Shown in pieces: positions 48,033 through 62,609 of a stretch of DNA of 64,000 nt. The position numbers were made by a program, and so were the translations under genes. Source of the DNA: Alphaproteobacteria bacterium. GTDB taxonomy: Bacteria > Pseudomonadota > Alphaproteobacteria > UBA7985. The stretch spans positions 13,310 through 77,309 of the forward strand of contig CAXQZM010000071.1 in NCBI GenBank assembly GCA_964228455.1. The letters run 5' to 3'. The notes under the pieces are model-generated. The model worked only from the letters and a program-made list of their open reading frames with translations, did no database searches and was not told the origin of the DNA. Each line of letters starts with the position of its first letter. Positions within the stretch are counted from its first letter, which is position 1.

Positions 48033-48110
48033 TTGCATGCGTTTGCAAAAAGCACTTGATCGAGATAGAAAATCTTGTAGGATACCTTCTTGGTTGCAAG
48101 CGTATGCAAA
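48033..48110 (+). promoter_or_regulatory. Two copies of a LacI-type operator-like inverted repeat (TTGCA-N6-TGCAA, CG-centred) upstream of the ABC transporter operon
   Basis: 48033..48050 TTTGCATGCGTTTGCAAA and 48094..48110 TTGCAAGCGTATGCAAA. Each is an imperfect palindrome of the TTGCA half-site. They lie ~60 bp apart and 30-100 bp upstream of ATG 48138. Confidence 0.4.
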
Positions 48111-48137
48111 TTGTGTGCGTTATGTTTGGGGGTATGC

Positions 48138-49199
48138 ATGGCGGAAATTGAGCTCCGTAATTTGTCCAAGCGTTGGGGGTCCTTTGTCGGCGTCCACGAA
48201 TTTGACCTGACCATTGCTGACAAAGAATTCCTTGTTCTTCTTGGTCCGTCAGGTTGTGGCAAAACCACTACTATGAGAATGATTGCTGGTTTGGAGCCAA
48301 TCAGTGAAGGCGACATTGTTGTAGATGGGAGGCGCATCAACGACTTGGCCCCAAAAGATCGGGACGTTGCAATGGTGTTCCAGTCTTACGGTCTCTACCC
48401 TAATATGAGTGTCAGGGAAAACATTAGGTTCCCGTTGAAAGTCCGAAAGGTGCCTAAGAACGAGCATGAGGCGCGCGTCAACAAAGCCGCTGCTATGGTC
48501 GAATTGGAGCCGTTCATGGACCGTAAGCCAGCAGCACTTTCGGGAGGGCAACGCCAGCGCGTGGCACTCGCTCGCGCCATTGTGCGGGAGCCTAATGTGT
48601 TTCTAATGGATGAGCCTTTATCAAACCTTGATGCAAAGCTAAGGGTATCCACTCGCGCGCAGATTAAAAATCTCCAACACGAACTAAAAGTTACTACTAT
48701 TTACGTAACTCATGACCAGGTCGAAGCTATGACGTTAGCCGATCGTGTTGTAGTTATGAATAAAGGAAGAATTCAACAAGTAGGCACCCCGACTGAGATT
48801 TATGATAATCCCGCCAACACTTTCGTCGCCAGCTTCATTGGATCGCCGGCAATGAACCTAGTTCCGGGAAAGATGTCAAAAGGCGTTTTTGAGGCAGAAG
48901 GCCTAAAAGTTAAAGGGTTAAAGGGCAGTGATGGCAGCACGGTACTTGGATTTCGTGCGGAGGACGTAGCCCTCACGAGGAAAGCGGCTCAGTTAAAAGC
49001 TGCAGTTTACTCATTTGAATTATTGGGCGACGCGACCATGATCACAGTCAAGATTGGAAGCGGTTCGGACGCCGCAATGGTTAGCGTCAAGGCCCCTAAA
49101 GAATATCGAACGACCATTGGCGAGCAAGTCAATGTGTCGATCGATCCAAAGCTGTGTCATCTGTTCGATGCATCAACAGGGACCAGACAGGACAGTTGA
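48138..49199 (+). CDS. ABC transporter ATP-binding protein (CUT1 family, MalK/UgpC-like)
   Basis: Start at ATG 48138 (MAEIELRNLSKRWG). Walker A GPSGCGKTT, LSGGQRQRVALARA, Walker B FLMDEPLSNLD, C-terminal TOBE/regulatory domain. Confidence 0.85.
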   Translation: MAEIELRNLSKRWGSFVGVHEFDLTIADKEFLVLLGPSGCGKTTTMRMIAGLEPISEGDIVVDGRRINDLAPKDRDVAMVFQSYGLYPNMSVRENIRFPLKVRKVPKNEHEARVNKAAAMVELEPFMDRKPAALSGGQRQRVALARAIVREPNVFLMDEPLSNLDAKLRVSTRAQIKNLQHELKVTTIYVTHDQVEAMTLADRVVVMNKGRIQQVGTPTEIYDNPANTFVASFIGSPAMNLVPGKMSKGVFEAEGLKVKGLKGSDGSTVLGFRAEDVALTRKAAQLKAAVYSFELLGDATMITVKIGSGSDAAMVSVKAPKEYRTTIGEQVNVSIDPKLCHLFDASTGTRQDS

Positions 49200-49234
49200 T
49201 ACTGTTCTGTAGCACAAACCTTAAGGAGGATCAT

Positions 49235-50425
49235 ATGATCAAAAAACTAACTTTGGCAGCAAGCGTTTCAGCGCTAGCGACTTCCGCGGCTTTTGCCGGT
49301 GGCCATTGTAATGGCTCGGGCATCTCGTCTCTGTCTGCGGCGTTTCCTGCTGTAGAAGCTCTACAGGATCAAATGGAAGCTTGTGGCGCAACCACGGAGC
49401 GTGACCAAGAGCACAAAGATAAAATTAACCCGGCATTAGAGGCATCTCCAGCAGCATATAACGCTGTTCTAGGAGCAAACTCTACATTTACGGCCGCTAA
49501 TTCAGCTGGGCTCGTTGCCGCAATTACAGACGTCCCCGGCGTTTCTGATTTGCCAGTTTCTATGAAAGTGGAGCAGGATGGTGAAGTTGTGGCAATTGCT
49601 ACTATGGCGAATGCTCAGCACTTAATGGTGCGCCAAGACGTGCTTGATGCAACCGGCATGGCTATGCCAACAACATATGAAGAAGTCGTTGCCTTGGCCT
49701 CGAAAGCGCAAGAGATGGGCTTGATGGAGTATCCATTGACCGGCACGTATGCGGCTGGCTGGAACTTAGGTGAAGAGTTCATGAACATGTGGCAAGGTAC
49801 AGGCGAGCCAATGTTCGTTAATGGCACTGAATCTAACATTAACAATGCTGCAGGTATTGCTACTTTGGAGATGATGAAGGCCTTGACGGATCTCATGAAC
49901 CCCGAATTCTTAACTTTCAACTCAGACATCGTTCAGGCCCAGTTTGAACAGGGCGAGGCTGGCATAGCTAACCTATGGGGGACTCGTGCACAGAAGGTGA
50001 TTGATGGTGTTGGCGCTCTTGGTGCTGATGTTGTTATGGGCGGCGCGCCTACTTTCGGCGGAGGTTCAACTCCAGCGACTACTATTTGGTGGGATGGTTT
50101 CTTCTTCGCTGCAAATCAGTCTGATGAAGAGCTGGCAGCCGCTGTTGATACGGCAATTCATGCGGCAGCCTCTGTATTGAGTGTTGATGGAAATGCCGAA
50201 CTGGCAGTTTGGGTTATCGACGGATATGAGCCTACTCCAGCTGCGGCAGGCGTCTTCGCATCAGCCGCTGCGGGCGCAAATCCTTATCCAATGCTACCGC
50301 ATGTTGGTGCTATGCATACCGCTGCGGGCGCTGAGTTAGCGGATTTCTTATCTGGAAACGAGTCTGCAGCGCAGGCCTTAGCGGATATTGAAGCTGCCTA
50401 TAACGCAGCAATGGCAGAAAATTAA
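49235..50425 (+). CDS. ABC transporter substrate-binding protein (extracellular solute-binding family 1)
   Basis: AAGGAGGA RBS, then ATG 49235. Signal peptide (MIKKLTLAASVSALATSAAFA). SBP_bac_1-type length. Confidence 0.75.
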   Translation: MIKKLTLAASVSALATSAAFAGGHCNGSGISSLSAAFPAVEALQDQMEACGATTERDQEHKDKINPALEASPAAYNAVLGANSTFTAANSAGLVAAITDVPGVSDLPVSMKVEQDGEVVAIATMANAQHLMVRQDVLDATGMAMPTTYEEVVALASKAQEMGLMEYPLTGTYAAGWNLGEEFMNMWQGTGEPMFVNGTESNINNAAGIATLEMMKALTDLMNPEFLTFNSDIVQAQFEQGEAGIANLWGTRAQKVIDGVGALGADVVMGGAPTFGGGSTPATTIWWDGFFFAANQSDEELAAAVDTAIHAAASVLSVDGNAELAVWVIDGYEPTPAAAGVFASAAAGANPYPMLPHVGAMHTAAGAELADFLSGNESAAQALADIEAAYNAAMAEN

Positions 50426-50431
50426 TAATGC

Positions 50432-50470
50432 GGGGTGGCGGTTGTCGCCACCCCACTTTACCTTTTTTCT
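50432..50470 (+). terminator. Intra-operon stem-loop/attenuator downstream of the substrate-binding-protein gene
   Basis: GGGGTGGCG-GTTGT-CGCCACCCC perfect 9-bp stem followed by ...CCTTTTTTCTT. Typical position for a partial terminator that raises SBP:permease mRNA stoichiometry. Confidence 0.6.
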
Positions 50471-50529
50471 TAGCGGATCGGTACTGAGCTCCGCTTGGCA
50501 AGATGGGAAGCTACTAAGAGCTAAATAAA

Positions 50530-51534
50530 ATGCCACATCGTACGTTTTTATGGTTTGTCTTGCCCTCAGTGGCCACCATGGTGCTTTTTATTTTGTTGCC
50601 ATTGGTAAATGTAGCGTACCAGTCCTTTTTCTCCGAACCTACACCAATACAGAGGGTAGTAGAGGTTTGCTCAACTAACTTTTTTACTGGTGAGAAGACT
50701 TGCACGGAGTCTTTCACTTATGAGGAGGTAGAGGGCCCGAATATATTTCGGGGTTTAGACTTCATTTGTGGATACTCAGTGCTAGCATGTAAAGAGCTAT
50801 CCGAAGGTGCTAAACTAATGAATCTCCCGTTTTATCGGGCTTTGGCATTTACTTTATTTTATACATTTATCACCACGCCATTCATCATCGTTCTAGGGCT
50901 GATGATTGCCAGTCTTGTCAATAATCTGACGCGGTCAGTTCGCGGCCCTATCATCTTTGCAAGTCTATTACCCTTTATTGTTACCCCTCTCGTTGGCTCT
51001 TTGGTATTATTTTGGATGACCGGAAATAACGGCGGATTGCTCTACAGTTTAGTTAACGGGCTAATGTTTTGGACTGATGTTGATATTTCCCTCCGAGCTT
51101 CTGCAACCGCTGTCTGGGCGATGCTGGCCACTTATGGAGTTTGGCACGTAGCGCCGTTCGCGTTCATTGTGTTTTACGCTGGCCTGCAGACGGTTAGTCA
51201 GGACCAAATTGAAGCTGCAATGGTAGATGGTGCCAGTGTGTGGGAAAGGTTTCGACATGTTGTTGTTCCACATCTGATGCCCCTGATCACATTTGTACTT
51301 TTGATTCATATCATGGATGCATTTCGAGTGTTGGAGCCCATTGTTAGCTTTCAAGCGCAATCTAAAGCTCAGTCTTTGTCCACGTTGATTTACGAACACT
51401 TGGTTATTCAGCAAGAGAAGCGTTACGGAACAGCCGCTGCGACATCACTTCTGACCATTTTGATGGTATTCATCCTTCTTCTTCCCGTTTTGGTCAGAAC
51501 TTGGCGCGATTTTCGGGGGGATGGGCGATTATGA
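50530..51534 (+). CDS. ABC transporter permease (MalF/UgpA-like)
   Basis: 334 aa. Six TM helices with EAA-type loop (binding-protein-dependent transport signature). Confidence 0.8.
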   Translation: MPHRTFLWFVLPSVATMVLFILLPLVNVAYQSFFSEPTPIQRVVEVCSTNFFTGEKTCTESFTYEEVEGPNIFRGLDFICGYSVLACKELSEGAKLMNLPFYRALAFTLFYTFITTPFIIVLGLMIASLVNNLTRSVRGPIIFASLLPFIVTPLVGSLVLFWMTGNNGGLLYSLVNGLMFWTDVDISLRASATAVWAMLATYGVWHVAPFAFIVFYAGLQTVSQDQIEAAMVDGASVWERFRHVVVPHLMPLITFVLLIHIMDAFRVLEPIVSFQAQSKAQSLSTLIYEHLVIQQEKRYGTAAATSLLTILMVFILLLPVLVRTWRDFRGDGRL

Positions 51535-52697
51535 CTTCTAACAGACGCGCCGTTTCAGCAATACTCTATTTACTGGCCGGATTATGGGTTGTGATTGCTG
51601 CTTTTCCCTTCGCTTGGACTGTTTGGGGTAGCTTTAAATTTGAGACTGACTTTTTTGGCGCCTGGACGAAAAACATTTCAGGAGAAGACACCGGAAGAGA
51701 ATATGGGACATATTTTACCGCTGATGGATACGCCATCGCTTTCTCTTGGCCAGTAGAAACAGTTCCAACATTGGCAGAAGTAGAGCCATTTTTGGCAAGA
51801 CTTTCTACCGATCAGTTAGAGCACCCTTCCATTGCGCCATTATTTGACGCTATTTCAAATGAGACACGCCCATCGAATGGTGAATTACGCCAATTTAGTC
51901 GTTGGCTTAGATCGGAGGCGCGCCAGGGCCCCGACCGGTTTAGTGAAAATACTATGCAGTTTGTTACAGAGCTCGAAGAGGAAAGGGCTGCCAATGTTTC
52001 TGGTAAGGATTTTGGCCGAGCCGTTATAAACACTTTAGTTGTTACTCTCTCAGTTGTAGTTATTTCCTTAACGTTTGGAACATTAGGTGGGTATGCCTTA
52101 GCAAGGTCCACGGCGAAGTATGCTTTTTGGATACTTATAATAGCACTCGTTTTCCGAGCTATGCCGCACATTACTCTAGTATCTGGTTATATGGAGCCAC
52201 TATTTGCTACTCAAATTTCAGAGATAAAAATATTTGGGCTTACGGTGATAGAAGAGGGCACTCTCTGGGGAAGAACTTTTACTGCAGTCGTTGTTCTAGT
52301 AGCAATTAATCAGCCGTTCACAATTTGGATGATGCGGTCATTTTTTATGAATATTCCGCAGGAGCTTGACGAAAGTGCTTTAGTTGATGGGTGCAACCGG
52401 CTTCAAGGTTTCTGGCATGTTATTATGCCAGTAATGTGGCCCGGAGTGATAACAACAGGCCTCTTTAGTTTTCTGCTGGCTTACAACGATTTCACGGTTA
52501 CATCCGCGTTGCTGAGTCAAGAAAATACAACGATGATACCGCGTATCGCCGGTTTTCTTGGGTCCGCTCAATCTGATGGCGAGCAGATGGCTGCGGTCGC
52601 TGCAGTCGTATCCGCCACCGCGCCTCTTTTTGTTTTAATTATGGTGTTTCAGCGTCAGCTAGTTAGCGGCCTAACAGCGGGCGCCGTCAAGGGATAA
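51531..52697 (+). CDS. ABC transporter permease (MalG/UgpE-like) with extended periplasmic loop
   Basis: Start at ATG 51531 (MTSNRRAVSAILYLLAG). TM helices, a large loop between TM1 and TM2, C-terminal EAA motif region. Confidence 0.8.
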   Translation: MTSNRRAVSAILYLLAGLWVVIAAFPFAWTVWGSFKFETDFFGAWTKNISGEDTGREYGTYFTADGYAIAFSWPVETVPTLAEVEPFLARLSTDQLEHPSIAPLFDAISNETRPSNGELRQFSRWLRSEARQGPDRFSENTMQFVTELEEERAANVSGKDFGRAVINTLVVTLSVVVISLTFGTLGGYALARSTAKYAFWILIIALVFRAMPHITLVSGYMEPLFATQISEIKIFGLTVIEEGTLWGRTFTAVVVLVAINQPFTIWMMRSFFMNIPQELDESALVDGCNRLQGFWHVIMPVMWPGVITTGLFSFLLAYNDFTVTSALLSQENTTMIPRIAGFLGSAQSDGEQMAAVAAVVSATAPLFVLIMVFQRQLVSGLTAGAVKG

Positions 52698-52753
52698 GCC
52701 AAGTGTTTTAGTATGATTGATATATGCATTAAGAAGAAAAGAAGAAAGTTAGT

Positions 52754-54079
52754 ATGATACGACATTTAAAGACCGCCAAACCCGAGACCGAGCGAGCTGA
52801 AGATGACGCTGAGGTGCGCGAGGTAGTAGAAAAAACACTAGCCGACATTAAAGCCCGGGGAGATGAGGCGGTTCGCGAACTAGCGGAGAAATTTGATAAC
52901 TATTCTCCAAAAGCTTACTGTCTCTCAGCTGAGGAGATTGATGAGATTATCTCTAAGGTTTCCAAGGAAGACATGGCGGACATTGTTTTTGCGCAGGAGC
53001 AGGTGCGCAATTTTGCTCAAATTCAGCGAAACTCAATGAAAGATGTTGAGGTAGAGACACTCCCAGGCGTTATACTTGGCCATAAAAATATCCCAGTTCA
53101 GTCAGTTGGATGTTACGTCCCTGCGGGAAAATTCCCGATGGTGGCATCAGCCCATATGTCAGTTGCTACCGCTTCAGTAGCAGGCGTGCCTAGGATCGTT
53201 GCTTGCACTCCCCCCTTCAGCGGAGAGCCCAACCCAGCCGTTATTGCAGCCATGCACCTTGGAGGAGCTCATGAAATTTATGTTCTAGGAGGCATCCAAG
53301 CTGTTGGGGCAATGGCCTTGGGAACTGAGACCATAAAGCCGGTACATATGTTAGTTGGCCCAGGTAACGCCTTTGTCGCTGAAGCTAAACGTCAGCTTTT
53401 TGGTAAGGTCGGTATCGATTTATTTGCTGGCCCGACAGAAACTATGGTCATCGCGGATTCGTCTGTCGATGGTGAACTATGTGCAACTGATTTGCTTGGG
53501 CAGGCAGAGCATGGGTACAACTCCCCAGCGGTGCTGCTTACCAATTCAGAGAAGTTGGCAAATGAGACTATGGACTGGATAGAGATCCTACTTGGCAAAC
53601 TTCCCACAGCCGAAACAGCCAGGGTTTCTTGGGAAGACTACGGAGAAATCATCGTCTGTGATACATATGACGAGATGCTAGAAGTCGCCGACGATATTGC
53701 TTCTGAACATGTGCAGGTAATGACCGATCGGGATGATTGGTTTTTAGAAAACATGACTTGCTATGGCGCCTTGTTTTTGGGTCCTAGAACAAATGTATCA
53801 AACGGCGATAAAGTTATAGGTACGAATCACACTTTGCCGACCAAGAAAGCAGGTAGGTACACAGGTGGATTATGGGTGGGTAAATATCTCAAAACTCACT
53901 CATACCAGAAAATTACAACAGACGAAGCTGCAGCAGATATTGGCGCGTATTGTTCGCGCCTTTGCTTATTGGAGGGCTTTGTTGGTCATGCAGAGCAGGC
54001 CAATGTGCGTGTTCGCCGTTATGGGGGTGTGAATGTTCCATATGGCGAGGGCGCGCCTCGCCGAAAGGCTATCGGGTAA
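52754..54079 (+). CDS. Histidinol-dehydrogenase-family NAD-dependent dehydrogenase (HisD paralogue; specificity unknown)
   Basis: 441 aa. HisD fold blocks ([21 protein letters not shown], Zn-binding His/Asp/Glu region). The catabolic context suggests a paralogue (cf. HpsN-type alcohol-to-acid dehydrogenases) rather than histidine biosynthesis. Confidence 0.65.
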
Positions 54080-54140
54080 TAATTTGGGAGGGTGCGAGTA
54101 GAGCGCTGATTTTGCTGCGTGGACTACTTGGGAAATTGCA

Positions 54141-55184
54141 ATGACTAAAATTTCAGAGCACTGCAAATCGATGATTGCCCCCTTACGGCGAGCAATGGTC
54201 AATTTTGATGGGACAGTTGAGGCTAGCTTGCGCAAAGTTTTTCATAGAGATGCCCAAATTAGCTTTTGCCATCCGTTTGGTGATGTAATTGGATCTGACG
54301 CATTATACGAATTAGCCTACGCACCGCTTTTAGTTGCCATGCCTGACCTCGAGCGCCGGGATATGATCTTGCTTGCGGGACGTACCCCTGAGGGAAAGGA
54401 CTGGATTGGGATGATGGGGAACTACATGGGAACCTTCGTAGCTCCATTTTTGGGTATCCCGCCCACAGGTCATCTTGCGCACATGCGTTACCATGAGTTC
54501 TACCAGGTTGAAGAGGGCAAAATAATACAAGTCCAGGCAATATGGGACATTCCTGAATTAATGATGCAAGCAAACGCTTGGCCCATGGCTCGACAAATGG
54601 GGAAATTTCTAGCTACTCCTTCGCCCATGACACAGGATGGTTTGACAGCAAGCGGTGATGGAACCGTAGCCTTGGACCATGTTGTTGCGATGTTAACAGA
54701 TCTTTGCAAACATCCTGCCAATCCTGATCCAGCCGTGATGAAGCTTCAACACTACTGGCATTCTAGGAATAACTGGTATGGGCCAGCTGGTATAGGAACA
54801 AGTAGGGGTATTGATGGCTTTCGTCATTGGCATCAAATCCCATTCCTGCGCGCTATGCCTGACCGTAAGCTAGATGCGATGGGGGACCTTATGTCTCACT
54901 GGGTGGCAGAGGGAAACTATGTCTGTGAGACGGGCTGGCCGAACATGCGCCTAACCTTAACCAATGATGGTTGGATGGGCATCGCTCCTGCTGGGAAAGA
55001 GGTTACGCTCAGGTCGTTAGATTTTTGGCGAGTAGAGGATGGGAAGATCCGTGAAAACTGGGTCTTAGTTGACCTTCTTGATCTCTATCGACAGATCGAT
55101 GTCGACGTTCTTGCCCGACTTAATGAGTTCAATAAGGCTCGCAATTTATCACCAGTCAACATTCCCTCTGGGCTTGTTCAATGA
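54141..55184 (+). CDS. Tandem SnoaL-like/NTF2-like (ester-cyclase-like) double-domain protein, paralogue 1
   Basis: 347 aa. Two repeats of the SnoaL polyketide-cyclase-like motif (GTFVAPFLGIPPTGH...EGKIIQVQAIWD and GWMGIAPAGKEVTLRSLDFWRVEDGKIRENWVLVDLLDLYRQI). Confidence 0.6.
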   Translation: MTKISEHCKSMIAPLRRAMVNFDGTVEASLRKVFHRDAQISFCHPFGDVIGSDALYELAYAPLLVAMPDLERRDMILLAGRTPEGKDWIGMMGNYMGTFVAPFLGIPPTGHLAHMRYHEFYQVEEGKIIQVQAIWDIPELMMQANAWPMARQMGKFLATPSPMTQDGLTASGDGTVALDHVVAMLTDLCKHPANPDPAVMKLQHYWHSRNNWYGPAGIGTSRGIDGFRHWHQIPFLRAMPDRKLDAMGDLMSHWVAEGNYVCETGWPNMRLTLTNDGWMGIAPAGKEVTLRSLDFWRVEDGKIRENWVLVDLLDLYRQIDVDVLARLNEFNKARNLSPVNIPSGLVQ

Positions 55185-55277
55185 AGTACTCAATTGGCAG
55201 AAAAGTATGGGTCTCCAATGAAAGATATTAAACAATGACTTGGTTAAAAAATGCGACCAGATCTTTAGAAGAGCGGC

Positions 55278-56300
55278 ATGGTGAGTAATACCCGAGTAAC
55301 ATCAGCAGAGGTTGCCCAACACGCTGGTGTTTCTCAATCAGCTGTGAGCCGTGTCTTCACTCCTGGAGCGTCAGCATCAAAGAAAACAGCTGAAAAAGTC
55401 AGAAAAGCGGCTGCTGATTTGGGGTACCGTCCTAACGTTCTTGCGCGCGCAATGGTATCTGGGAAAAGCCGGATTATTGGCCTAGTGGTCGCGTACCTCG
55501 ACAATCAATTTTACCCTGAGGCGCTCGAAAAACTATCTAATGAGCTTCAAAAACGCGGATATCATGTCCTTATCTTTATGGCTGATAATGCAGTTGGTAA
55601 TGTGGATAGCGTGCTCGAGGAGATACTTGATTATCAAGTTGAGGGCATAATCGCTGCATCTGTTGCCATGTCGTCTGATTTATCTGAGCGATGTCGAGCA
55701 GCGGACGTCCCGATGGTTCTATTCAACCGAAATCAAGATGATCCAAACATGTCATCTGTGACTTCCGACAATCACTCGGGCGGTCGTAAAGTTGCAGAGT
55801 TTTTGCTAGCAGCCGGGCACAAAAAAATTGGGTATATTGCAGGTTGGAAGGGCGCCTCAACACAACGTGATCGCGAAGCAGGTTTTATATCGGGTTTAGC
55901 AGAGGCGGGTGTAGCTCTTCACTCACGGGGCGAGGGTGATTTTCAGATGGAGAAAGCGGCTGAGGCAACGCGCCTTATGTTTGCTTATGATCCACCAGAG
56001 GCTGTCTTCGTTGCAAATGATCATATGGCTCTAGCCGTCTTAGATACGTTGCGGTTTGAGCTTGGACTCCGGGTTCCGGAAGACGTTTCGGTTGTTGGAT
56101 ACGACGACGTGCCTGCTGCTGGATGGCCAGCGTATGATCTCACAACAGTGCGCCAGCCCGTCAATCGGATGGTCACAAATACCGTCGATATTCTTCTTGA
56201 TCAAGTTGAAGGAAGCGCGAGTAAATTGAGGCGTATCGCAATTGCTGGACCATTTATTAAGCGTGGATCCGCTCGAGTTCCGGATGGTTGGGCTTCATGA
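55278..56300 (+). CDS. LacI-family transcriptional regulator
   Basis: 340 aa. N-terminal HTH (VTSAEVAQHAGVSQSAVSRVF), periplasmic-binding-protein-like sugar-binding core. Confidence 0.9.
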   Translation: MVSNTRVTSAEVAQHAGVSQSAVSRVFTPGASASKKTAEKVRKAAADLGYRPNVLARAMVSGKSRIIGLVVAYLDNQFYPEALEKLSNELQKRGYHVLIFMADNAVGNVDSVLEEILDYQVEGIIAASVAMSSDLSERCRAADVPMVLFNRNQDDPNMSSVTSDNHSGGRKVAEFLLAAGHKKIGYIAGWKGASTQRDREAGFISGLAEAGVALHSRGEGDFQMEKAAEATRLMFAYDPPEAVFVANDHMALAVLDTLRFELGLRVPEDVSVVGYDDVPAAGWPAYDLTTVRQPVNRMVTNTVDILLDQVEGSASKLRRIAIAGPFIKRGSARVPDGWAS

Positions 56301-57331
56301 AATCAATTCATGATTTGAACCGAAACAAAATAGTTGGTCTGCGCTCGGCAACATATAATTTTGAAGAGTCAACAGTTCGGAGGGAGTTGAAAAAGGTTTC
56401 GAAACCAGACGCTATTTTTAGAATGGCATTTCCAATTGAGGAGACCGTTGGTGCTGACTCATACTATGAAGCAGCATATGCGCCTCTTTTTAAAGCTATT
56501 CCAGATCTCGAGCGGCGCGATTGGATCGTGATGTCCGGCCAGACTGATAAAGGTTATGACTGGGTTGGTTGTGGGGGCTTTTATACAGGGACGTTTGTAA
56601 ACCCTTGGTTTGATATACCAGCCACGGGCCACATGGTTCATATGCGGTTTCATGAGTTTTATCGATTTGAGGACGGAAAAATTTCGGAAGTGCAGGCACT
56701 CTGGGACATCCCGGAAGTCATGCTTCAAGCTAATGCGTGGCCTATGGCACCAGCGCTAGGTAAGGAGTGGCATATACCAGGCCCAGCGACGAATGATGGT
56801 GTTCGGCTGGCTCACGACAGAGTTAACGGCGCACGCGCCTGCGAAATCGTTATTGATATGTTGGATCATCTGAAAAAACACCCTACTCAAGGTGGTCCAG
56901 AAGTAATGAAGCCAGAGCAATTCTGGCATCCCCGTATGTCCTGGTATGGCCCCTCAGGAATTGGGACAGGCAGGGGCTTTGCGGGTTTTAGAAACTGGCA
57001 CCAAATACCATTTTTAAACGCGATGCCTGATCGAGGACTTGAGCGGGACAAAATCACTTATCATTTCTTTGGTGATGGCCCTTATTGTGCTGTGACGGGC
57101 TGGCCCAACATGATCCAAACAATAACTCACGATGGTTGGATGGGGATACCGCCACTGAATAAAAGAGTGACTATGAAATCACTCGATTTTTGGCGTTTAG
57201 AGGGTGACCTTATCCGAGAAAATTGGGTAATGGTCGATTTACTCGACTTATATGATCAAATTGGTGTCGACGTATTAGGCCGAATGCGCGAATTTAATAA
57301 GGCGCGCAACCCTATCAATTTATCTGGCTAA
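56288..57331 (+). CDS. Tandem SnoaL-like/NTF2-like double-domain protein, paralogue 2
   Basis: 347 aa. Collinear with the 54141..55184 product (shared AYAPL...PDLERRD, HMRxHEFY.FEDGKI, LDFWR.E.D.IRENWVMVDLLDLYDQIGVDVL.R..EFNKARN). Confidence 0.6.
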   Translation: MGFMKSIHDLNRNKIVGLRSATYNFEESTVRRELKKVSKPDAIFRMAFPIEETVGADSYYEAAYAPLFKAIPDLERRDWIVMSGQTDKGYDWVGCGGFYTGTFVNPWFDIPATGHMVHMRFHEFYRFEDGKISEVQALWDIPEVMLQANAWPMAPALGKEWHIPGPATNDGVRLAHDRVNGARACEIVIDMLDHLKKHPTQGGPEVMKPEQFWHPRMSWYGPSGIGTGRGFAGFRNWHQIPFLNAMPDRGLERDKITYHFFGDGPYCAVTGWPNMIQTITHDGWMGIPPLNKRVTMKSLDFWRLEGDLIRENWVMVDLLDLYDQIGVDVLGRMREFNKARNPINLSG

Positions 57332-57343
57332 GGAGGCCACCAA

Positions 57344-58108
57344 ATGACTTTACCTCAAACTCCCTCTTTTTCGTTAAGTGGTAAACGAGCGTTAGTCGCA
57401 GGAGCGTCATCTGGAATTGGTCTGGCCTGCGCTGCAGCTTTATCACAAGCAGGAGCTCATGTTACGGTTGCGGCTCGGCGAGTAGATAAGCTTTCTGAGT
57501 TGGTAGATGATTTAAAGGCAAATGGCGCCTCAGCTGAGGCGCTTGCACTAGATGTAAGTGATACTGAGGCAACCCAGGCAGCGATCGACCAAGCCGAGCC
57601 ATTTGATGTGTTAGTTAATTCTGCCGGTTTAGCGCATCATGGCCCCGCCTTGGATACAATACCCCATAAATTTGATGAGGTTGTAGCCATTAACCTTAAG
57701 GGAGCGTTTTTTCTTACCCGTGCGGTTGCAGCCAAGTTAATGGACGCGGGCAAATCAGGCTCACTCATAAATATTTCCTCACAAATGGCATACGTAGGTG
57801 GCATAGAACGATCTGTCTATTGTGCTACCAAGCATGCGGTTGAAGGTTTTACAAAAGCAGTTGCTATAGAATGGGGTCCTAAAGGAATCCGGGTTAACAC
57901 CATCTGTCCGACATTCATTAAGACAGCATTAACTGCATCAACTTTTGCTAATCCTGAACGGAAAGCATGGATTGAAGAAAAAATAAAACTCGGGCGTATT
58001 GGCGAGGTGGAAGATATTATGGGCCCCGTTACATTTTTAGCCTCTGATGCCTCTGCTCTAATAACAGGAACGGCTATCCTTGTGGATGGCGGTTGGACAG
58101 CTGATTAA
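57344..58108 (+). CDS. SDR-family short-chain dehydrogenase/reductase
   Basis: 254 aa. TGASSGIG cofactor motif, NSAG, catalytic YxxxK (YCATKHAV). Confidence 0.85.
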   Translation: MTLPQTPSFSLSGKRALVAGASSGIGLACAAALSQAGAHVTVAARRVDKLSELVDDLKANGASAEALALDVSDTEATQAAIDQAEPFDVLVNSAGLAHHGPALDTIPHKFDEVVAINLKGAFFLTRAVAAKLMDAGKSGSLINISSQMAYVGGIERSVYCATKHAVEGFTKAVAIEWGPKGIRVNTICPTFIKTALTASTFANPERKAWIEEKIKLGRIGEVEDIMGPVTFLASDASALITGTAILVDGGWTAD

Positions 58109-58118
58109 GGAATATTTC

Positions 58119-59111
58119 ATGAGCTATACTAACAAGCCATCGATGAAGGGTTTTGACCCTATCTACAAAGATTTTCCGGATTATATTATTGGGATTACCA
58201 AGAGAATCTGGGAGGATCGTGATTTAGCATCACTCCATCACTTGTATTCGAAAGACATCCCAGTTCGTTCGCCCGGGTCACTGGTTATTGGAAATGAACC
58301 CGTAATTGCAGCTACGCAAGCAACGCTGGCGGAATTTCCAGATCGCACCCTTTATGGAGAGGATGTTATTTGGTCTGGGTCGCCTGAGGTTGGCATGCTT
58401 TCATCACATCGAATTATTTCCACGGCCACCCACGCGGTCGAAGGGGTTTATGGCAAACCTACTGGCAAAAAGCTGACTTATCGAATCATAGCGGATTGCC
58501 ACGCTAAAAATAACACCATTGACGATGAGTGGTTAATACGTGACCAAGGTGCAATTGTTAAGCAATTGGGGTGGGCGGCGAAGGATTATGCCGCTGACCT
58601 AATTAGTCGCGAAGGAGGCATCGAGACCTGCATTCGACCGTTTACACCAGAAATTGATGTTGAAGGCCCCTACCAAGGCTGCGGAAATGATAATGAGTGG
58701 GGTCATAAATATGCCGATATTCTCACGAGGATTATGGGAGGGTCGTATGACGTTGTCGCGCATGAATATGATCGCGCTGTCCATTGCGAATATGCCGGAG
58801 GCATTACAGCCCATTCTCATAAAGCCGTAGATCAGTTTTGGATGCCATTAAGATCAGCGTTTCCAAACGCCGAATTTAAAGTTGAGCATCAAATCGGTCG
58901 GGATGATCCTATGATGCCGCCACGAGCCGCAATCCGTTGGTCCTTGAAAGGAAAACATGAGGGCTGGGGTGGTTTTGGCGCGCCCACAGGAGCAGAGGTT
59001 TATGTTATGGGAGCATCTCACGCTGAATTTGGTCCCTGGGGACTAAGGCGAGAGTACACACTTTACGATGATACGGCGATTTGGAAGCAGATTTTGATCA
59101 GTCAGGGGTAG
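58119..59111 (+). CDS. Tandem SnoaL-like/NTF2-like double-domain protein, divergent paralogue 3
   Basis: Start at ATG 58119 (MSYTNKPS). Two ester-cyclase-like repeats (GKPTGKKLTYRIIADCHAKNNTIDDEWLIRDQ and GAPTGAEVYVMGASHAEFGPWGLRREYTLYDDTAIW). Confidence 0.55.
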   Translation: MSYTNKPSMKGFDPIYKDFPDYIIGITKRIWEDRDLASLHHLYSKDIPVRSPGSLVIGNEPVIAATQATLAEFPDRTLYGEDVIWSGSPEVGMLSSHRIISTATHAVEGVYGKPTGKKLTYRIIADCHAKNNTIDDEWLIRDQGAIVKQLGWAAKDYAADLISREGGIETCIRPFTPEIDVEGPYQGCGNDNEWGHKYADILTRIMGGSYDVVAHEYDRAVHCEYAGGITAHSHKAVDQFWMPLRSAFPNAEFKVEHQIGRDDPMMPPRAAIRWSLKGKHEGWGGFGAPTGAEVYVMGASHAEFGPWGLRREYTLYDDTAIWKQILISQG

Positions 59112-59168
59112 CCTAGTCATTGTAATAAATTTCTGAAATACTTGGGATAATTGATAAAAGAGAAGCAT

Positions 59169-60134
59169 ATGGAGAGTAATGCACCGAAGATTGTAAGATA
59201 TGGCGAGCTAGTGCCGTGCAAGACAGCGTTTATTGACGCACACACCCCTGGATCAGACCAAAAGGAAAACTTTACGATCATTGGTGGTGGTGTCTCGGAA
59301 AGTCCAGATCAGCACATTCATATAAAGGCGACGCCAGGCTACAATATTGGAGCTGCAGGCCAGCCGCCAAAGTGTCGCAATTCACTGCACTCTCACCGAA
59401 CAGCAGAAGTTTTTTTTGTATTGTCTGGCAGGTGGCGTTTTTTTTGGGGGCGATACGGGACAGCGGGCGAAGTTACCTTAGAGGAAGGTGACATCTTCAA
59501 TATTCCTACAGGCATATTTCGAGGTTTTGAGAACATTGGTACCGACTATGGTATGATTATGGCTATCCTAGGCGGTGATGATGCGGGTGGCGGCGTACAA
59601 TGGGCACCACAAGTCATTCAAGACGCTGCTGATCATGGATTAATTCTTGGCGAAAATGGCGCTTTGTATGATACCAAAAAAGGCGCGCGCTTGCCTGATG
59701 GTGTAGGGCCTATGCCCTTATTGTCAGAAGATGTTCTGAAGAGAATGCCAGAGACTCCCATTGCCGAAATCTTACCTTTTATTGGGCGTTATTGGGATAT
59801 CATGGCAATGGCTGACCAGGCGCCAGCTAAGGTTATAGGGCCCAGTGCAATGATTAGAGATCGGCCAGGGTTTGAAGTTGAGCTGTTGAATCACAAAACC
59901 CCAGCTCCCGGGCCATATCGCGTTGACGTGCAAGAGACACTGATGGTTATGCGAGGGCATTGGTCATTGAAGTGGCGAGGAGGGGATATTCGTCTTGCTC
60001 CAGGCGACACGGTGGCGGTTCCAGCGGGCTTGGAGCATGAACTGGGTCCCGCGATGACTGGCGAGGCTTCTGTTTACAAGATTATAGGTACTGAAGATCC
60101 AGCTGGACCTACAGGGCTACTATTGGAGGCTTAG
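59169..60134 (+). CDS. Bicupin (two cupin domains) protein, possible ring-cleaving dioxygenase/isomerase
   Basis: ~320 aa. Two cupin barrels (first with HSHRTAEVFFVLSG..., second with ...TVAVPAGLEHELG). His/Glu metal-ligand-like positions. Confidence 0.55.
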   Translation: MESNAPKIVRYGELVPCKTAFIDAHTPGSDQKENFTIIGGGVSESPDQHIHIKATPGYNIGAAGQPPKCRNSLHSHRTAEVFFVLSGRWRFFWGRYGTAGEVTLEEGDIFNIPTGIFRGFENIGTDYGMIMAILGGDDAGGGVQWAPQVIQDAADHGLILGENGALYDTKKGARLPDGVGPMPLLSEDVLKRMPETPIAEILPFIGRYWDIMAMADQAPAKVIGPSAMIRDRPGFEVELLNHKTPAPGPYRVDVQETLMVMRGHWSLKWRGGDIRLAPGDTVAVPAGLEHELGPAMTGEASVYKIIGTEDPAGPTGLLLEA

Positions 60135-61259
60135 ATGAGTTTGCAAGTCACACACGTCGGATCATTACCGCGCTCGCAACAAGTTGTAGATATGATTTTT
60201 GCGCGTGAGAAAGAACAACCATACGACGTAGAGAAGTTTGATGCATGTATGAGGGGTGCTGTTTCTGCTACCGTTAAGAAACAAATAGAGGCAGGGGTGA
60301 GTTGGGTTTCAGATGGAGAAACCTCTAAGATCTCTTATGCTACTTATGTGAAGGATCGCTACACCGGGTTCTCCGGTGACAGCCCACGAAATGCACCCGA
60401 AGATCTTAAAATGTTTCCTGGGTTTCTTCAGCGCCAGGCGGATAGTGGCGGAACTCCAACCTATGCTCGGCCTATGTGCACAGGAGAGGTCAAGGCAAAA
60501 AACACCGGTGATTTAGAGAGAGACATTAGCAACTTGAAGGCCGCTATGGCTGAACATGGCGCGCCAAGAGGTTTCATGAATTCCGCGTCGCCTGGTGTGA
60601 TTTCACTCTTCTTAGCCAATGACTATTATTCATCGCGCGAAAAATATTTGTATGCGTTATCCGACGTTATGAAAGCAGAGTATGAAACTATAGTTGCTAG
60701 TGGTTTAGATCTCCAGCTTGATTGTCCAGATTTGGCCCTATCCCGTCACATGTTATTTCAAGACCTATCTGACGAAGAGTTTTTAAAGATCGCTGAAATG
60801 CATGTTGAGGCTTTAAATGCAGCACTGATAAATATTGATCCGGCTAGTGTCCGCATTCATATTTGTTGGGGAAATTATGAGGGTCCGCACTGCTGTGATA
60901 TGCCGATGGATACAGTATTTAACACTTTGATGAGAGTGAAAGCTTCCCATGTTTTGTTTGAGACGGCGAATCCACGTCACGGACATGAATGGGCTACCTT
61001 CCGCGATCGAAAGGCCGACATCCCAGAGGATAAAATACTCGTGCCTGGGGTGGTAGATACAACAACTAATTTTATTGAGCATCCAGATTTGGTGGCAGAG
61101 CGTTTGTGCCGTTTTATCGATATTGTTGGGGAGGATCGAGTTGTGGCTGGCTCTGATTGTGGGTTTGGGACATTTGCTGGTTTTGGCGCGATCGATCCTG
61201 ATATAGCCTATGCTAAGCTCAAGTCATTGAGTGAAGGTGCCAAGCGTGCTGTCGCCTGA
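60135..61259 (+). CDS. Cobalamin-independent methionine-synthase-like (MetE C-terminal/UroD-like) zinc-dependent alkyl(methyl)transferase
   Basis: 374 aa. MetE catalytic-domain-like blocks: N-terminal THVGSLPRS, zinc-ligand-like IHICWGNYE (His/Cys/Glu) and C-terminal GSDCGFG. Confidence 0.65.
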   Translation: MSLQVTHVGSLPRSQQVVDMIFAREKEQPYDVEKFDACMRGAVSATVKKQIEAGVSWVSDGETSKISYATYVKDRYTGFSGDSPRNAPEDLKMFPGFLQRQADSGGTPTYARPMCTGEVKAKNTGDLERDISNLKAAMAEHGAPRGFMNSASPGVISLFLANDYYSSREKYLYALSDVMKAEYETIVASGLDLQLDCPDLALSRHMLFQDLSDEEFLKIAEMHVEALNAALINIDPASVRIHICWGNYEGPHCCDMPMDTVFNTLMRVKASHVLFETANPRHGHEWATFRDRKADIPEDKILVPGVVDTTTNFIEHPDLVAERLCRFIDIVGEDRVVAGSDCGFGTFAGFGAIDPDIAYAKLKSLSEGAKRAVA

Positions 61260-61950
61260 TCTGCTTCGAGTTCTTAAATCCGTCGACACTCCGACGGTTT
61301 GTAATGCAATTGAAGTTGCCCAAGGAAGACGTGGTTTCAAAAATTTTACTCGCAAAACGATGTTAGCCTCTGATGCTAATGCTCCAGCAATGGTTGGGTA
61401 TGCGTGCACGGCTCAGATAGCAGCACTAGAGCCTCCAAAGGAATCACCCGATACGATAAAAAAAAGACGGATGGATTATTACAGAGCTATGGCCGCCGCA
61501 GTGAAATCTGGTCCAACTATATGCGTAGTTGAAGATGTTGATGATGAGAAAGCTGTAGGAGCCTTTTGGGGTGAAGTGAATACTACTGTCCATAAGGGGC
61601 TTGGTTTAGTTGGAACGATAACGAACGGGCTGATGCGGGATTTGGGCGATATGGCTAATGATTACCCTGTCCTTGCGGGCGGGATTGGACCAAGCCATAT
61701 GTATGTTCATATCCGCAGCGTAAGCCAGCCGGTAAAAATCTATGGCATGGCGGTGAACCAAGGGGACCTTTTACATGCTGATTGTCATGGAGCGCTTGTA
61801 ATTCCAGATGAAGTGCTGCCAAATCTTAATTATGCGGTAAAAAAACTCTTAGAAACAGAGCGACTTATTTTAGAGCCTGCTCGCCAGCCTGACTTCAATA
61901 TTGACGAATTTGAAAAAGCTTGGGCGGCATTTGAAGCCGCTCGCACTTAA
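61231..61950 (+). CDS. RraA-family protein (HMG/CHA-aldolase / 4-hydroxy-2-oxoacid aldolase-like; 'RNase E inhibitor' family)
   Basis: 239 aa. RraA-like motifs (TPTVCNAIEV, GLGLVGTITNGLMRDLGDM, HADCHGALVIP). Start uncertain (overlaps upstream gene end; a GTG start is possible). Confidence 0.6.
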   Translation: MKVPSVLSPDLLRVLKSVDTPTVCNAIEVAQGRRGFKNFTRKTMLASDANAPAMVGYACTAQIAALEPPKESPDTIKKRRMDYYRAMAAAVKSGPTICVVEDVDDEKAVGAFWGEVNTTVHKGLGLVGTITNGLMRDLGDMANDYPVLAGGIGPSHMYVHIRSVSQPVKIYGMAVNQGDLLHADCHGALVIPDEVLPNLNYAVKKLLETERLILEPARQPDFNIDEFEKAWAAFEAART

Positions 61951-61970: not shown

Positions 61971-62393
61971 TTAATAGCGCTGGAACCGGATCGTAAATAG
62001 CTCTCCATCGACCTCAAAAGTTATCGTGCTATAACTGTAAACGTTTCTCTGCTCTTGTGAATAGGTGGTTACATCTTGGCAAACCGTAGAAACAGAGCCT
62101 TTGTTTTCTTCTGCAGCAATCATGCCACCAATGATGGCGCCAGCTCCTGTTGCTTTATCGTCTCCTCCTGAGAGTATATCTCCAAAAATACCTCCAATAA
62201 CCATCCCGCCAAGAACATCCTCAGCGTCTGCTCCCTCCTCCTCGCTGCAAAGCCTTTTTGTGTGAGGTACTTGGATACGCTCAGTTTGAAAAAAATCCTC
62301 AACCTTGCCCGTAACGGAGTTAATGTGATGAGCAGAGGCGGGAAGCGCTAAAAAAGAAGCGATTGCGGCAAATAAGAATATCGTACGTTTCAT
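61971..62393 (-). CDS. Secreted glycine-zipper (17-kDa-antigen-like, Gly-zipper_2TM) protein
   Basis: Signal peptide MKRTIFLFAAIASFLALPASA. GxxxG-rich stretch GGMVIGGIFGDILSGG...GAGAIIGGMIAA. Confidence 0.6.
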   Translation of the reverse strand: MKRTIFLFAAIASFLALPASAHHINSVTGKVEDFFQTERIQVPHTKRLCSEEEGADAEDVLGGMVIGGIFGDILSGGDDKATGAGAIIGGMIAAEENKGSVSTVCQDVTTYSQEQRNVYSYSTITFEVDGELFTIRFQRY

Positions 62394-62609
62394 TTGTATC
62401 CCTTTAGAGTTCACCAAAATTTAAAAAAAGGGGTAGTGAGAAATCAAGGTGATTATGTGGCCATAACAAGACTTCTTTAGCTTGAAACAGCGTTGCTTTG
62501 AGGAGCCTCACTCCAACAGCGCATGCCGAAAACTCAGTTTATGCTCTGGGCCGGATAAAAAATACGAGGTTCACTTGCTTTTTCTGTTCGTTTCGAGTGA
62601 TCCTCAAGA

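Follow-up and report, generated by a model that had tools for sequence, protein, structure and literature searches.

A conserved, LacI-associated catabolic operon combining tandem NTF2 proteins, an HpsN-like dehydrogenase and a core MetE-type enzyme

Gene content and regulation of the locus

This study focused on a cluster of 13 genes found in a 64-kb stretch of DNA from an uncultured alphaproteobacterium (contig CAXQZM010000071.1). The whole 64 kb is referred to as the window, and cluster positions are given in window coordinates. All 13 genes lie on the + strand, between 48138 and 61950, with junctions ranging from 29-nt overlaps to a 104-nt gap. They specify a CUT1-type ATP-binding cassette (ABC) importer and a LacI-family repressor, together with a HisD-family dehydrogenase, three tandem SnoaL/NTF2 proteins, a short-chain dehydrogenase/reductase (SDR), a bicupin, a MetE-type methyltransferase and an RraA-like protein (Table 1). 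An initial annotation, made from the sequence alone, had described fourteen same-strand genes with short or overlapping junctions; the arrangement was as described, but the number of genes was 13. Every family assignment made at that stage was recovered with Pfam and NCBIfam models. The kind of system is familiar, a repressor-controlled catabolic operon with an end like that of the gallate pathway, while the enzyme set is undescribed in the literature searched. No description of the cluster was found in full-text searches, in agreement with the earlier statement that no characterised pathway has this composition.

The cluster promoter contains two imperfect palindromes of the form TTGCA-N6-TGCAA, and these are the only two exact sites for this motif in the window, so that the two LacI-operator-like palindromes noted earlier ahead of the importer were confirmed by an exact-motif scan. 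In 1.53 Mb of related loci, where about 1.5 sites would be expected by chance (our own estimate), 62 exact sites were present, mostly in cluster promoters. They were concentrated in the divergent NTF2|ATPase and SBP|ATPase promoters (SBP, solute-binding protein) and upstream of the HisD-like gene. All the components of a LacI-controlled CUT1 uptake operon were found, namely an SBP_bac_1 protein, two BPD_transp_1 permeases, a MalK-type ATPase, a LacI repressor and palindromic operators, and on this evidence the cluster is predicted to be a chromosomal, LacI-repressed operon. The term island, used in the initial annotation, did not hold for its composition. The G+C content of the cluster (0.47-0.49) is that of its flanks, which carry origin-proximal housekeeping genes (gidB-parA-parB, dnaN, pnp, truB, dapD/E, efp, tgt, coaE, aroE and maf), and both features indicate a chromosomal operon rather than a compositional island. 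Among 24 contigs inspected, at least 17 had the identical gene order, and the protein was indexed in 29 blocks of the sequence collection.

Scans for promoters and terminators gave background levels except for one G+C-rich hairpin (50432-50454, + strand) with a stem of 10-11 bp, 8-9 of them G-C pairs. It directly follows the stop codon of the SBP gene, ahead of the 104-nt gap to permease 1, and is possibly an intra-operon attenuator or an mRNA stabiliser that raises expression of the SBP relative to the permeases. A further operator-like site with one mismatch (TTTCAGAGCACTGCAA, 54151-54166) lies 10 nt inside the first NTF2 gene and may mean nothing, as one-mismatch sites occurred in the window at the chance rate. 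Among the importer proteins, the ATPase is 61-74% identical to its orthologues in related clusters and the SBP 38-48%. Solved relatives of the SBP are distant (a sugar SBP, SmoF and UgpB, with E values of about 1e-6 or weaker); a sequence search of solved structures returned nothing informative for this protein, the NTF2 proteins or the bicupin. Permease 2 is longer than the 293-294-residue permease 2 of the Phaeobacter and Sinorhizobium clusters.

Table 1. Genes and operators of the cluster, in window coordinates.
Feature	Position	Strand	Basis
LacI-type operator 1, TTGCATGCGTTTGCAA	48033-48048	.	exact TTGCA-N6-TGCAA, imperfect palindrome
LacI-type operator 2, TTGCAAGCGTATGCAA	48094-48109	.	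exact TTGCA-N6-TGCAA, imperfect palindrome; 29 nt 5' of the ATPase start codon
MalK/UgpC-type ABC ATPase with TOBE domain	48138-49199	+	Pfam ABC_tran, TOBE_2, OB_MalK
CUT1 SBP with signal peptide	49235-50425	+	Pfam SBP_bac_1
ABC permease 1	50530-51534	+	Pfam BPD_transp_1
ABC permease 2, 388 aa (gene callers)	51531-52697	+	Pfam BPD_transp_1
HpsN-like dehydrogenase, HisD family	52754-54079	+	PF00815 444 bits, TIGR00069 424 bits
Tandem SnoaL/NTF2 protein, subfamily A	54141-55184	+	Pfam SnoaL, two stretches
LacI-family repressor	55278-56300	+	Pfam LacI HTH, Peripla_BP_1/3/4
Tandem SnoaL/NTF2 protein, subfamily A', 344 aa	56297-57331	+	Pfam; ATGA overlap with lacI
Classical SDR, KduD/gluconate-5-dehydrogenase/HpsO-like	57344-58108	+	adh_short_C2 202 bits
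Tandem SnoaL/NTF2 protein, subfamily C	58119-59111	+	Pfam
Bicupin metalloenzyme	59169-60134	+	Cupin_2
Single-domain ('core') MetE-type zinc homocysteine S-methyltransferase (predicted), 374 aa	60135-61259	+	PF01717 38 bits
RraA-like protein	61231-61950	+	PF03737 61.6 bits

Conservation and modular distribution

The first NTF2 protein (subfamily A) is the most conserved protein of the cluster. It had 5154 relatives at E < 1e-5, a close relative is encoded in at least 531 species-representative genomes, mostly of marine bacteria, and its identity stays at 63-79% in Alpha- and Gammaproteobacteria, among them Rhodobacterales, Hyphomonadaceae, Maricaulaceae, Sphingomonadaceae, Halieaceae, Arenicella, Woeseiaceae and Rhizobiaceae. 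Neighbourhoods were counted in the 39 fetched loci that had full 10-kb flanks around this gene. The partners found within 10 kb were the HisD-like dehydrogenase and NTF2-C (35 loci each), the LacI regulator and the bicupin (34 each), the MetE-like enzyme (33) and the SDR (30), and at least four of the six accompanied NTF2-A in 35 of the 39 loci. The co-occurrence that the initial annotation had proposed to look for in other genomes is therefore real. Conserved synteny and the recurring operators together indicate that the unit and its regulation are real and ancient, and they bear out its description as a conserved, co-regulated catabolic unit.

Carriers include abundant marine lineages of the Roseobacter group (Planktomarina, Amylibacter, Sulfitobacter, Phaeobacter and Octadecabacter) as well as Hyphomonadaceae, Halieaceae and Woeseiaceae, and many are metagenome-assembled genomes (MAGs) of marine Rhodobacterales. 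Among cultured organisms, the cluster is present in Phaeobacter (on the chromosome, CP010643.1), Octadecabacter arcticus 238 (pOA238_160), Ruegeria sp. THAF33, R. conchae, Tritonibacter mobilis and Marinovum algicola. Wherever it occurs, the annotations are generic ('ester cyclase', 'histidinol dehydrogenase', 'cupin', 'cobalamin-independent methionine synthase II family' and 'RraA family'). Outside the Rhodobacterales, an SSF symporter replaces the ABC importer, in some cases accompanied by a TonB-dependent receptor and a sulfatase, and the additions include an Amidohydro_2 protein, an HpcH aldolase and an alpha/beta hydrolase. The Amidohydro_2 protein (LigI/LigJ family) occurred in 18 related loci and bears a weak likeness to fuconolactonase; the HpcH aldolase resembles GarL.

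The cluster is modular. A lower set, comprising the HisD-like dehydrogenase, SDR, LacI regulator, bicupin, alpha/beta hydrolase and RraA-like protein without NTF2-A/C and the MetE-like enzyme, was found in Sinorhizobium, Roseibium and Mesorhizobium, with the addition of an amidase, a TRAP system and a GMC oxidoreductase, respectively. Within Sinorhizobium it was found in S. medicae and further strains, but no record of Sinorhizobium meliloti matched the cluster. Elsewhere the upper NTF2/MetE set stands alone. A Vibrio pelagius plasmid (L084, 5382-21984) carries a CUT1 importer and four tandem NTF2 genes, followed by soxBDAG-purU, and a Halobellus limi plasmid (L085, 191-16917) carries an ABC importer, five NTF2 genes, a MetE-like gene and a DesA/LigM-like gene. 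Four of the five Halobellus NTF2 genes are recently duplicated tandem genes with 62-71% mutual identity, and the fifth encodes a single domain.

The window departs from its relatives in several respects. It has no counterpart of the PcaD-like alpha/beta hydrolase of about 231 residues that lies between the MetE-like and RraA-like genes in 30 loci. Also absent are NTF2 subfamilies D and E, which are usual elsewhere, the divergent subfamily D gene being upstream of the transporter in most relatives. The window does carry both the A and A' versions of the main NTF2 protein. In six loci, including that of Ruegeria sp. THAF33, a 200-residue class I S-adenosylmethionine-dependent methyltransferase is encoded between the bicupin and MetE-like genes (for example L083, 19000-19602, and L044, 15878-16513), and a methylating enzyme beside a presumed demethylating enzyme is odd in a catabolic operon. 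A 'polyketide cyclase' of Ruegeria pomeroyi (SPO2652a) proved to be an isolated single-domain gene beside pyrE and a cysteate transporter, and is unrelated.

Enzymes of the cluster

The dehydrogenase exceeds the hisD equivalog cut-off (TIGR00069, 243.8 bits), yet it is closer to HpsN and is encoded in a catabolic operon: it scored 403 bits against the sulfopropanediol 3-dehydrogenase structure 8v35 but 251 bits against the best true HisD. It is about 55% identical to CpHpsN, with which the zinc ligands Q250, H253, D352 and H412 and the catalytic pair E318-H319 align. K353 is also kept, at a position that in E. coli HisD is presumably Tyr. The motif that defines HpsN is G-R-Y-A/S-H, of which the last residue, His126, binds the sulfonate, and true HpsN is sulfonate-specific and dependent on that His (PMC11382572). 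In the window and in 48 loci the motif is replaced by GKFPM (residues 125-129), in 15 loci outside the Rhodobacterales it reads GKYPL, and the His was present in none of the 65 cluster-linked orthologues examined. The enzyme is best placed, by these residues, in a third subfamily, distinct from both HpsN and HisD. Its ligand is probably still an anionic 1,2-diol, though not a sulfonate, and the predicted reaction is a four-electron conversion of HOCH2-C(OH) to HOOC-C(OH). The earlier assignment as a HisD-like four-electron dehydrogenase thus stands at the level of the family (PF00815), and is refined to an HpsN-like enzyme without the sulfonate-binding His. Likeness to the catabolism of 2,3-dihydroxypropanesulfonate (DHPS; hpsN-hpsO-hpsP with SuyAB, Xsc or CuyA) extends to the HisD-fold zinc dehydrogenase with identical zinc ligands and catalytic Glu-His, and to an adjoining SDR that is HpsO-like only in a generic way. 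The window differs from that system in the GKFPM/GKYPL motif, in having no desulfonating enzyme, and in partner enzymes that are entirely different.

The three NTF2 proteins, of about 330-347 residues, each contain two SnoaL/NTF2 domains (PF07366, 86, 80 and 53 bits). A and A' are 54-55% identical, but C and A only about 21%, which means that the three double-NTF2 proteins first described as paralogues are present but are not equivalent. A' is of the Ruegeria/Phaeobacter type (67% identical to the Ruegeria THAF33 protein and 59% to that of Phaeobacter), and C is 56-72% identical to orthologues in Octadecabacter, Ruegeria, Phaeobacter, Vibrio and Mesorhizobium. The NTF2 genes are not decayed, and the proteins are not the pseudogenised remnants allowed for in the initial annotation. 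An AlphaFold2 model of subfamily A (predicted local distance difference test, pLDDT, 81.7) showed two NTF2 cones, and Foldseek matched it to SnoaL-like cyclases. Only the polyether epoxide hydrolases Lsd19 and MonB offer a tandem counterpart among PDB structures. The SnoaL cyclases and Lsd19/MonBI-BII share the cone fold and the presence of two NTF2 domains per chain or complex; they differ from the cluster proteins in sequence (10-20% identity), in context, and in the orientation of the domains, which deviates from that of Lsd19 by a root-mean-square deviation (rmsd) of 16-18 A over the whole chain. No polyketide synthase genes were found in the window or the loci inspected, where the neighbours are an importer, a repressor and catabolic enzymes. 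The cluster proteins occur in sets of three to five paralogues, beside the importer in most relatives and inside the importer operon in the window. Two structures considered as leads (PDB 8YSB and 8KAA) are only anthracycline cyclases, and a trimethylamine-binding NTF2 protein (PMC3955178) is unrelated.

In E. coli numbering, the zinc ligands of MetE are His641, Cys643, Glu665 and Cys726, and homocysteine is bound by Ser433, Glu484 and Asp599 (PMC7857596). The MetE-like protein of the cluster aligns with MesD (3RPD) and plant MetE (1U1H) at both sites. Its zinc ligands H242, C244, E276 and C342 are invariant in 16 orthologues, as are S10 (GSLP), E62 (SDGE) and D196 (QLDCP), which hold homocysteine by its carboxyl and amino groups. 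It has no N-terminal folate domain and falls below all methionine-synthase cut-offs (best NCBIfam score 85.1 bits, cut-off 406), and the nearest solved structure, MesD, gave only 34 bits. The initial annotation had named a MetE-type zinc alkyltransferase with thiol-dependent transfer; the family and zinc ligands hold, and the thiol is now predicted to be homocysteine, in an enzyme of the core methionine-synthase type. The known core methionine synthases (MesA-D) obtain the methyl group by way of partner proteins, from donors other than folates (PMC7857596). The resemblance, above all to MesD with MesX, lies in a short catalytic domain that lacks the folate-binding domain and keeps the zinc and homocysteine residues, and in the translational coupling of the sphingomonad MetE-like gene to that of a small partner protein; no MesX (DUF1852) partner is encoded in the cluster. 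Unlike the Mes enzymes, the cluster enzyme belongs to a presumably substrate-inducible catabolic operon and not to a biosynthetic context, and for this reason the methyl donor is probably the catabolised compound.

MetE-like homologues of 47-52% identity were found on three Sphingomonadales plasmids (L097, 12001-14293; L099, 10001-12291; L100, 9992-12262), from the genera Novosphingobium, Sphingobium and Croceicoccus, in a unit with an overlapping gene for a 129-133-residue NTF2 protein and an IclR regulator. This unit is embedded in a methoxy-aromatic cluster with desA/ligM, an alpha/beta hydrolase, metF and purU in all three cases, while folD is present in only two. Behind the unit come ligJ-ligU-ligK-ligI-ligAB in Croceicoccus and ligAB in Novosphingobium. 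The Croceicoccus demethylase scored above the cut-off for the syringate O-demethylase DesA (839.9 against 800). Likewise, the 'aminomethyltransferase' adjoining the five NTF2 genes and the MetE-like gene of Halobellus is DesA/LigM-like (470 and 432 bits, against 85 for GcvT). The MetE-like/NTF2 pair is thus repeatedly associated with methyl-ether demethylation genes, and in sphingomonads also with a gallate-type lower pathway. The sphingomonad unit could serve in tetrahydrofolate (THF) recycling or as a second O-demethylase. The alpha/beta hydrolase of these plasmids is 32-33% identical to that of the related clusters, and both are weakly PcaD-like enol-lactonases. On a Dietzia plasmid (L098, 9977-14326), a MetE-like gene of 46% identity is followed by genes for a 2-oxoglutarate/Fe oxygenase, a phytanoyl-CoA-dioxygenase-family protein and an HD-domain protein.

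Across 43 orthologues of the bicupin, H80, H82 and E86 (HxHxxxE) are conserved, and so is R124, which stands where the fourth His would be. The usual cupin motif with the fourth His is G-X5-P-X-G-X2-H-X3-N. The C-terminal cupin is degenerate and poorly conserved, leaving one conserved site, which is N-terminal. The nearest folds to its AlphaFold2 model (pLDDT 72) were oxalate decarboxylase, quercetinase YxaG and salicylate/gentisate 1,2-dioxygenase, all with template modelling (TM) scores of about 0.45. The reading frame opens at 59151, and orthologues start at the Met at 59169. The SDR fell under every NCBIfam equivalog cut-off, with best PDB matches to 2-deoxy-D-gluconate 3-dehydrogenase (179 bits) and HpsO (151 bits). 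The RraA-like protein, aligned to 3K4I and yeast YER010C, has an invariant G-x-x-R136-D137 motif, which contains the catalytic Arg-Asp pair of class II pyruvate aldolases, and is predicted to be a class II pyruvate aldolase or oxaloacetate decarboxylase. It is not a LigK/PcmE orthologue, as it scored 26.7 bits against the ligK equivalog model TIGR02798 (cut-off 304.5), and its profile matched 3NOJ with E 4e-4 (22.9 bits).

Possible pathway and substrate

Our preferred reading, held at a little under even confidence, is that the operon imports and fully degrades a small, polar, methyl-bearing compound, passing the methyl group to homocysteine and converting the rest to pyruvate. Gene content, synteny, operators, intact catalytic and ligand residues, and modular distribution are the observations from which we infer the order of steps, each substrate and the methyl donor. 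The transport module would be the CUT1 importer or, in other lineages, an SSF symporter with a TonB-dependent receptor, or a TRAP system. In an upper module (NTF2 A, A' and C, and the MetE-type enzyme), the NTF2 enzymes would perform acid-base chemistry on a conjugated ring (C-N/C-O hydrolysis, dehydration or isomerisation), and the MetE-type enzyme would transfer the substrate methyl to zinc-activated homocysteine, giving methionine. In the lower module, the HpsN-like enzyme would convert HOCH2-C(OH) to the carboxylate, the SDR would oxidise or reduce a secondary alcohol or ketone, the single-site bicupin would open or rearrange the ring, and the RraA-like class II aldolase would release pyruvate. 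The reaction logic first sketched, of alcohol-to-acid oxidation, NTF2/cupin ring chemistry, thiol methyl transfer and pyruvate aldol cleavage, is compatible with all the residue-level checks. The substrate then suggested was a methylated or sulfur- or ether-containing sugar, polyol or osmolyte. A methylated compound is still favoured, but the context in relatives points away from a methylated sugar or a sulfur compound and towards an O-methylated hydroaromatic or cyclitol-like C7 molecule with a HOCH2-C(OH) group, whose skeleton would give pyruvate and a C4 acid.

Within this class, the favoured, if doubtful, candidate is the 4-deoxygadusol/gadusol core of mycosporine-like amino acids (MAAs). 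In our judgement, this core fits all the parts best, with its enol methyl ether, amino-acid links, and tertiary alcohol bearing CH2OH. The NTF2 enzymes would remove the amino-acid substituents of the imine/enaminone ring, and the MetE-like enzyme would take off the enol-ether methyl. The demethylated ring would be an aci-reductone, and the bicupin would cleave either this or a gallate-like aromatised form of it; opening of the aci-reductone could give 4-hydroxy-4-(hydroxymethyl)-2-oxoadipate. In this compound, the group HOCH2-C(OH)(R)-CH2-COO- would be a carboxylate analogue of DHPS. Oxidation of the C7 hydroxymethyl by the dehydrogenase would then give 4-carboxy-4-hydroxy-2-oxoadipate, the substrate of LigK-type aldolases, and the aldol split of C7 would yield pyruvate (C3) and oxaloacetate (C4). 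In an alternative order, oxidation would be followed by NTF2-catalysed dehydration/aromatisation to 4-O-methylgallate, demethylation and gallate cleavage, with the same end products. Two genes of relatives would be in keeping with this substrate: the Arenicella locus encodes an IlvA-like Ser/Thr dehydratase, which would suit released Ser/Thr, and the Algimonas locus a sulfatase, which would suit sulfated MAAs. No paper on MAA catabolic genes was found in the literature searched.

A close known route is syringate/vanillate O-demethylation with 4,5-cleavage of gallate/protocatechuate in Sphingomonadales (DesA/LigM, MetF, LigH/PurU, LigI, LigJ, LigU and LigK), in which a methoxylated C6-C1 skeleton is demethylated, ring-opened and aldol-split to pyruvate. 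The RraA-like protein belongs to the LigK family, and Amidohydro_2 and PcaD-like hydrolases occur in related loci. However, the window has no THF-dependent DesA/LigM, MetF/PurU, class III extradiol dioxygenase or LigU, all the shared proteins score far under equivalog cut-offs, and the HpsN-like dehydrogenase, three tandem NTF2 proteins, bicupin, sugar-type ABC importer and LacI are additional.

Several observations weigh against the preferred reading. All of the enzyme families are functionally promiscuous, so that several substrates fit, and no experiment, transcriptome or fitness datum turned up for any gene of the cluster. A CUT1 importer with LacI is more typical of sugars. The window has no DesA/LigM-type enzyme, extradiol dioxygenase, Amidohydro_2 protein or alpha/beta hydrolase, the bicupin lacks the fourth His and its model is mediocre, the RraA-like protein scored low against both the ligK model and 3NOJ, and the SDR has no specific role in the scheme. 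The MetE-like enzyme of sphingomonads may just recycle 5-methyl-THF made by DesA/LigM, which would weaken the case for a direct demethylase. Finally, the rhizobial lower module is without a MetE-like gene, although fungal and cyanobacterial mycosporines are also O-methylated.

The same genes can be read in other ways. A methoxylated aromatic of plant, algal or lignin origin whose side chain bears a diol or hydroxymethyl group, for instance an arylglycerol or a methoxybenzyl-type alcohol, is an unlikely substrate, but one that shares the lig/des context. The HpsN-like enzyme and SDR would act on the side chain, the MetE-like enzyme on the methoxy group and the bicupin in ring cleavage, ahead of a gallate-type lower pathway. 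The salicylate/gentisate and quercetin dioxygenases among the fold neighbours of the bicupin, the PcaD-like hydrolase, and the occurrence of the cluster in soil rhizobia are in keeping with this. Uptake by CUT1/LacI fits poorly, since the usual importers of aromatic acids are TRAP, MFS or ABC systems from other families. Ring-hydroxylating and extradiol dioxygenases are both missing, and HisD/HpsN-type enzymes require a 2-hydroxy or 2-amino group beside the primary alcohol. Planktomarina and Amylibacter, which are among the many marine Rhodobacterales MAGs with the cluster, are presumably pelagic lineages, and this favours a marine metabolite. Rather improbable is an N-methylated, betaine-type glyceryl compound, such as the deacylated head group of diacylglyceryl-trimethylhomoserine (DGTS), with the HpsN-like enzyme working on the glycerol end, the MetE-like enzyme as a betaine-homocysteine methyltransferase and the aldolase on 4-hydroxy-2-oxobutanoate. 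HpsN does act on a 2,3-dihydroxypropyl group, the homocysteine site is kept, and the weak solved relatives of the SBP include binders of sulfoquinovosyl glycerol (SmoF) and glycerol-3-phosphate (UgpB). In addition, a carnitine/butyrobetaine-like set abuts the cluster in Arenicella, and the sarcosine oxidase genes after the Vibrio pelagius NTF2/ABC set are a weak hint. That adjacency was seen only once, though, and the sox genes have their own regulator; the GcvT-like neighbours are DesA/LigM-like O-demethylases rather than of the dimethylglycine or DmdA type, and three or four tandem NTF2 proteins and a bicupin would have no obvious role.

A methylated sugar, polyol or sugar-acid osmolyte, the preference of the initial annotation, also has a low probability. 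It would pass through uronate/aldonate, dehydration and KduI/KduD-like steps to aldol cleavage of a 2-keto-3-deoxy acid, and would account for the CUT1 importer and LacI, the closeness of the SDR to KduD/2-deoxygluconate 3-dehydrogenase, and the fuconolactonase-like and GarL-like proteins of relatives. Pfam and NCBIfam searches, however, revealed no kinase, glycosidase, enolase-type or IlvD-type dehydratase, or KduI-family cupin; a non-activated O-methyl ether would be an unlikely target for a homocysteine methyltransferase, and the context in relatives is one of aromatics and O-demethylation. The likeness of the dehydrogenase to HpsN, with Lys353 and Asp352 kept, and of the SDR to HpsO might suggest an organosulfonate (DHPS- or cysteinolate-like), its sulfite being exported by the TauE/SafE-family protein encoded downstream of the cluster (62610-63446). 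This gene accompanied the cluster in one of 80 loci, and SuyAB, Xsc, CuyA, hpsP and sulfatase genes are all absent from the window. Together with the missing His126 motif, the absence of desulfonating genes led to rejection of the sulfonate, which is very unlikely. Least credible is an epoxide or thioether route, with a MetE-like enzyme of the epoxyalkane:coenzyme M transferase (EaCoMT) type and NTF2 proteins like limonene-epoxide hydrolase or Lsd19. Some databases do label the orthologues 'epoxyalkane--coenzyme M transferase' or '2-hydroxypropyl-CoM lyase-like', and the only tandem-NTF2 structures are epoxide hydrolases. Coenzyme M has neither a carboxyl nor an amino group, whereas the MetE-like enzyme keeps the residues that bind both in homocysteine, and the EaCoMT reading was rejected on this account. 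No monooxygenase, coenzyme M biosynthesis or 2-KPCC gene was found in the window or the loci inspected, the domain arrangement is unlike that of Lsd19, and an imported epoxide is implausible.

The members of the enzyme set that is undescribed in the literature searched are the HpsN-derived non-sulfonate dehydrogenase, the tandem NTF2 sets, a catabolic core-MetE, a 2-His-1-Glu-Arg bicupin and a divergent RraA aldolase. Should the preferred candidate, the gadusol core, prove right, for which the chances appear modest, this would be the first catabolic pathway for MAAs/gadusols, compounds that serve as abundant UV sunscreens in marine algae, cyanobacteria, corals and fish eggs. Tandem-NTF2 hydrolases stripping amino acids off an enaminone ring would then be a new activity, and the MetE-like enzyme a fifth core methionine synthase family, drawing its methyl from an enol or aryl methyl ether, with methionine made during sunscreen breakdown. 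If the enzyme harvests methyl-ether methyls, it would provide a cobalamin- and folate-independent methionine route tied to algal metabolites. The cluster is widespread and has no substrate assigned to it, so a sizeable natural-product flux is invisible to genome-based models of the carbon cycle. The labels 'histidinol dehydrogenase' and 'methionine synthase' mislead automated metabolic reconstructions, and metagenome counts of DHPS users that rely on HpsN may take in the non-sulfonate subfamily. Phaeobacter and Ruegeria are cultured, genetically tractable carriers, which makes the question directly testable.

Some minor features of the surrounding DNA may be mentioned. The positions of gidB-parA-parB (18714-20912) and dnaN (28404-29507) place the window, of about 47% G+C, near the chromosomal replication origin. 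Just downstream of the cluster, a gene on the opposite strand (61971-62417) encodes a Gly-rich protein of 148 residues with a hydrophobic N-terminus and no Pfam match, and is not conserved with the cluster. Between 938 and 7157 are genes for an enoyl-CoA hydratase, an ADP-forming CoA ligase, an acyl-CoA dehydrogenase, a BKACE protein and an MFS transporter, and 3HCDH is encoded apart from these at 20994-21986; by our own reading, the set resembles carnitine/gamma-butyrobetaine catabolism. A matching hydratase/ligase/dehydrogenase/3HCDH-thioesterase set adjoins the cluster in the Arenicella MAG (L007, 199-5743), which may be coincidence.

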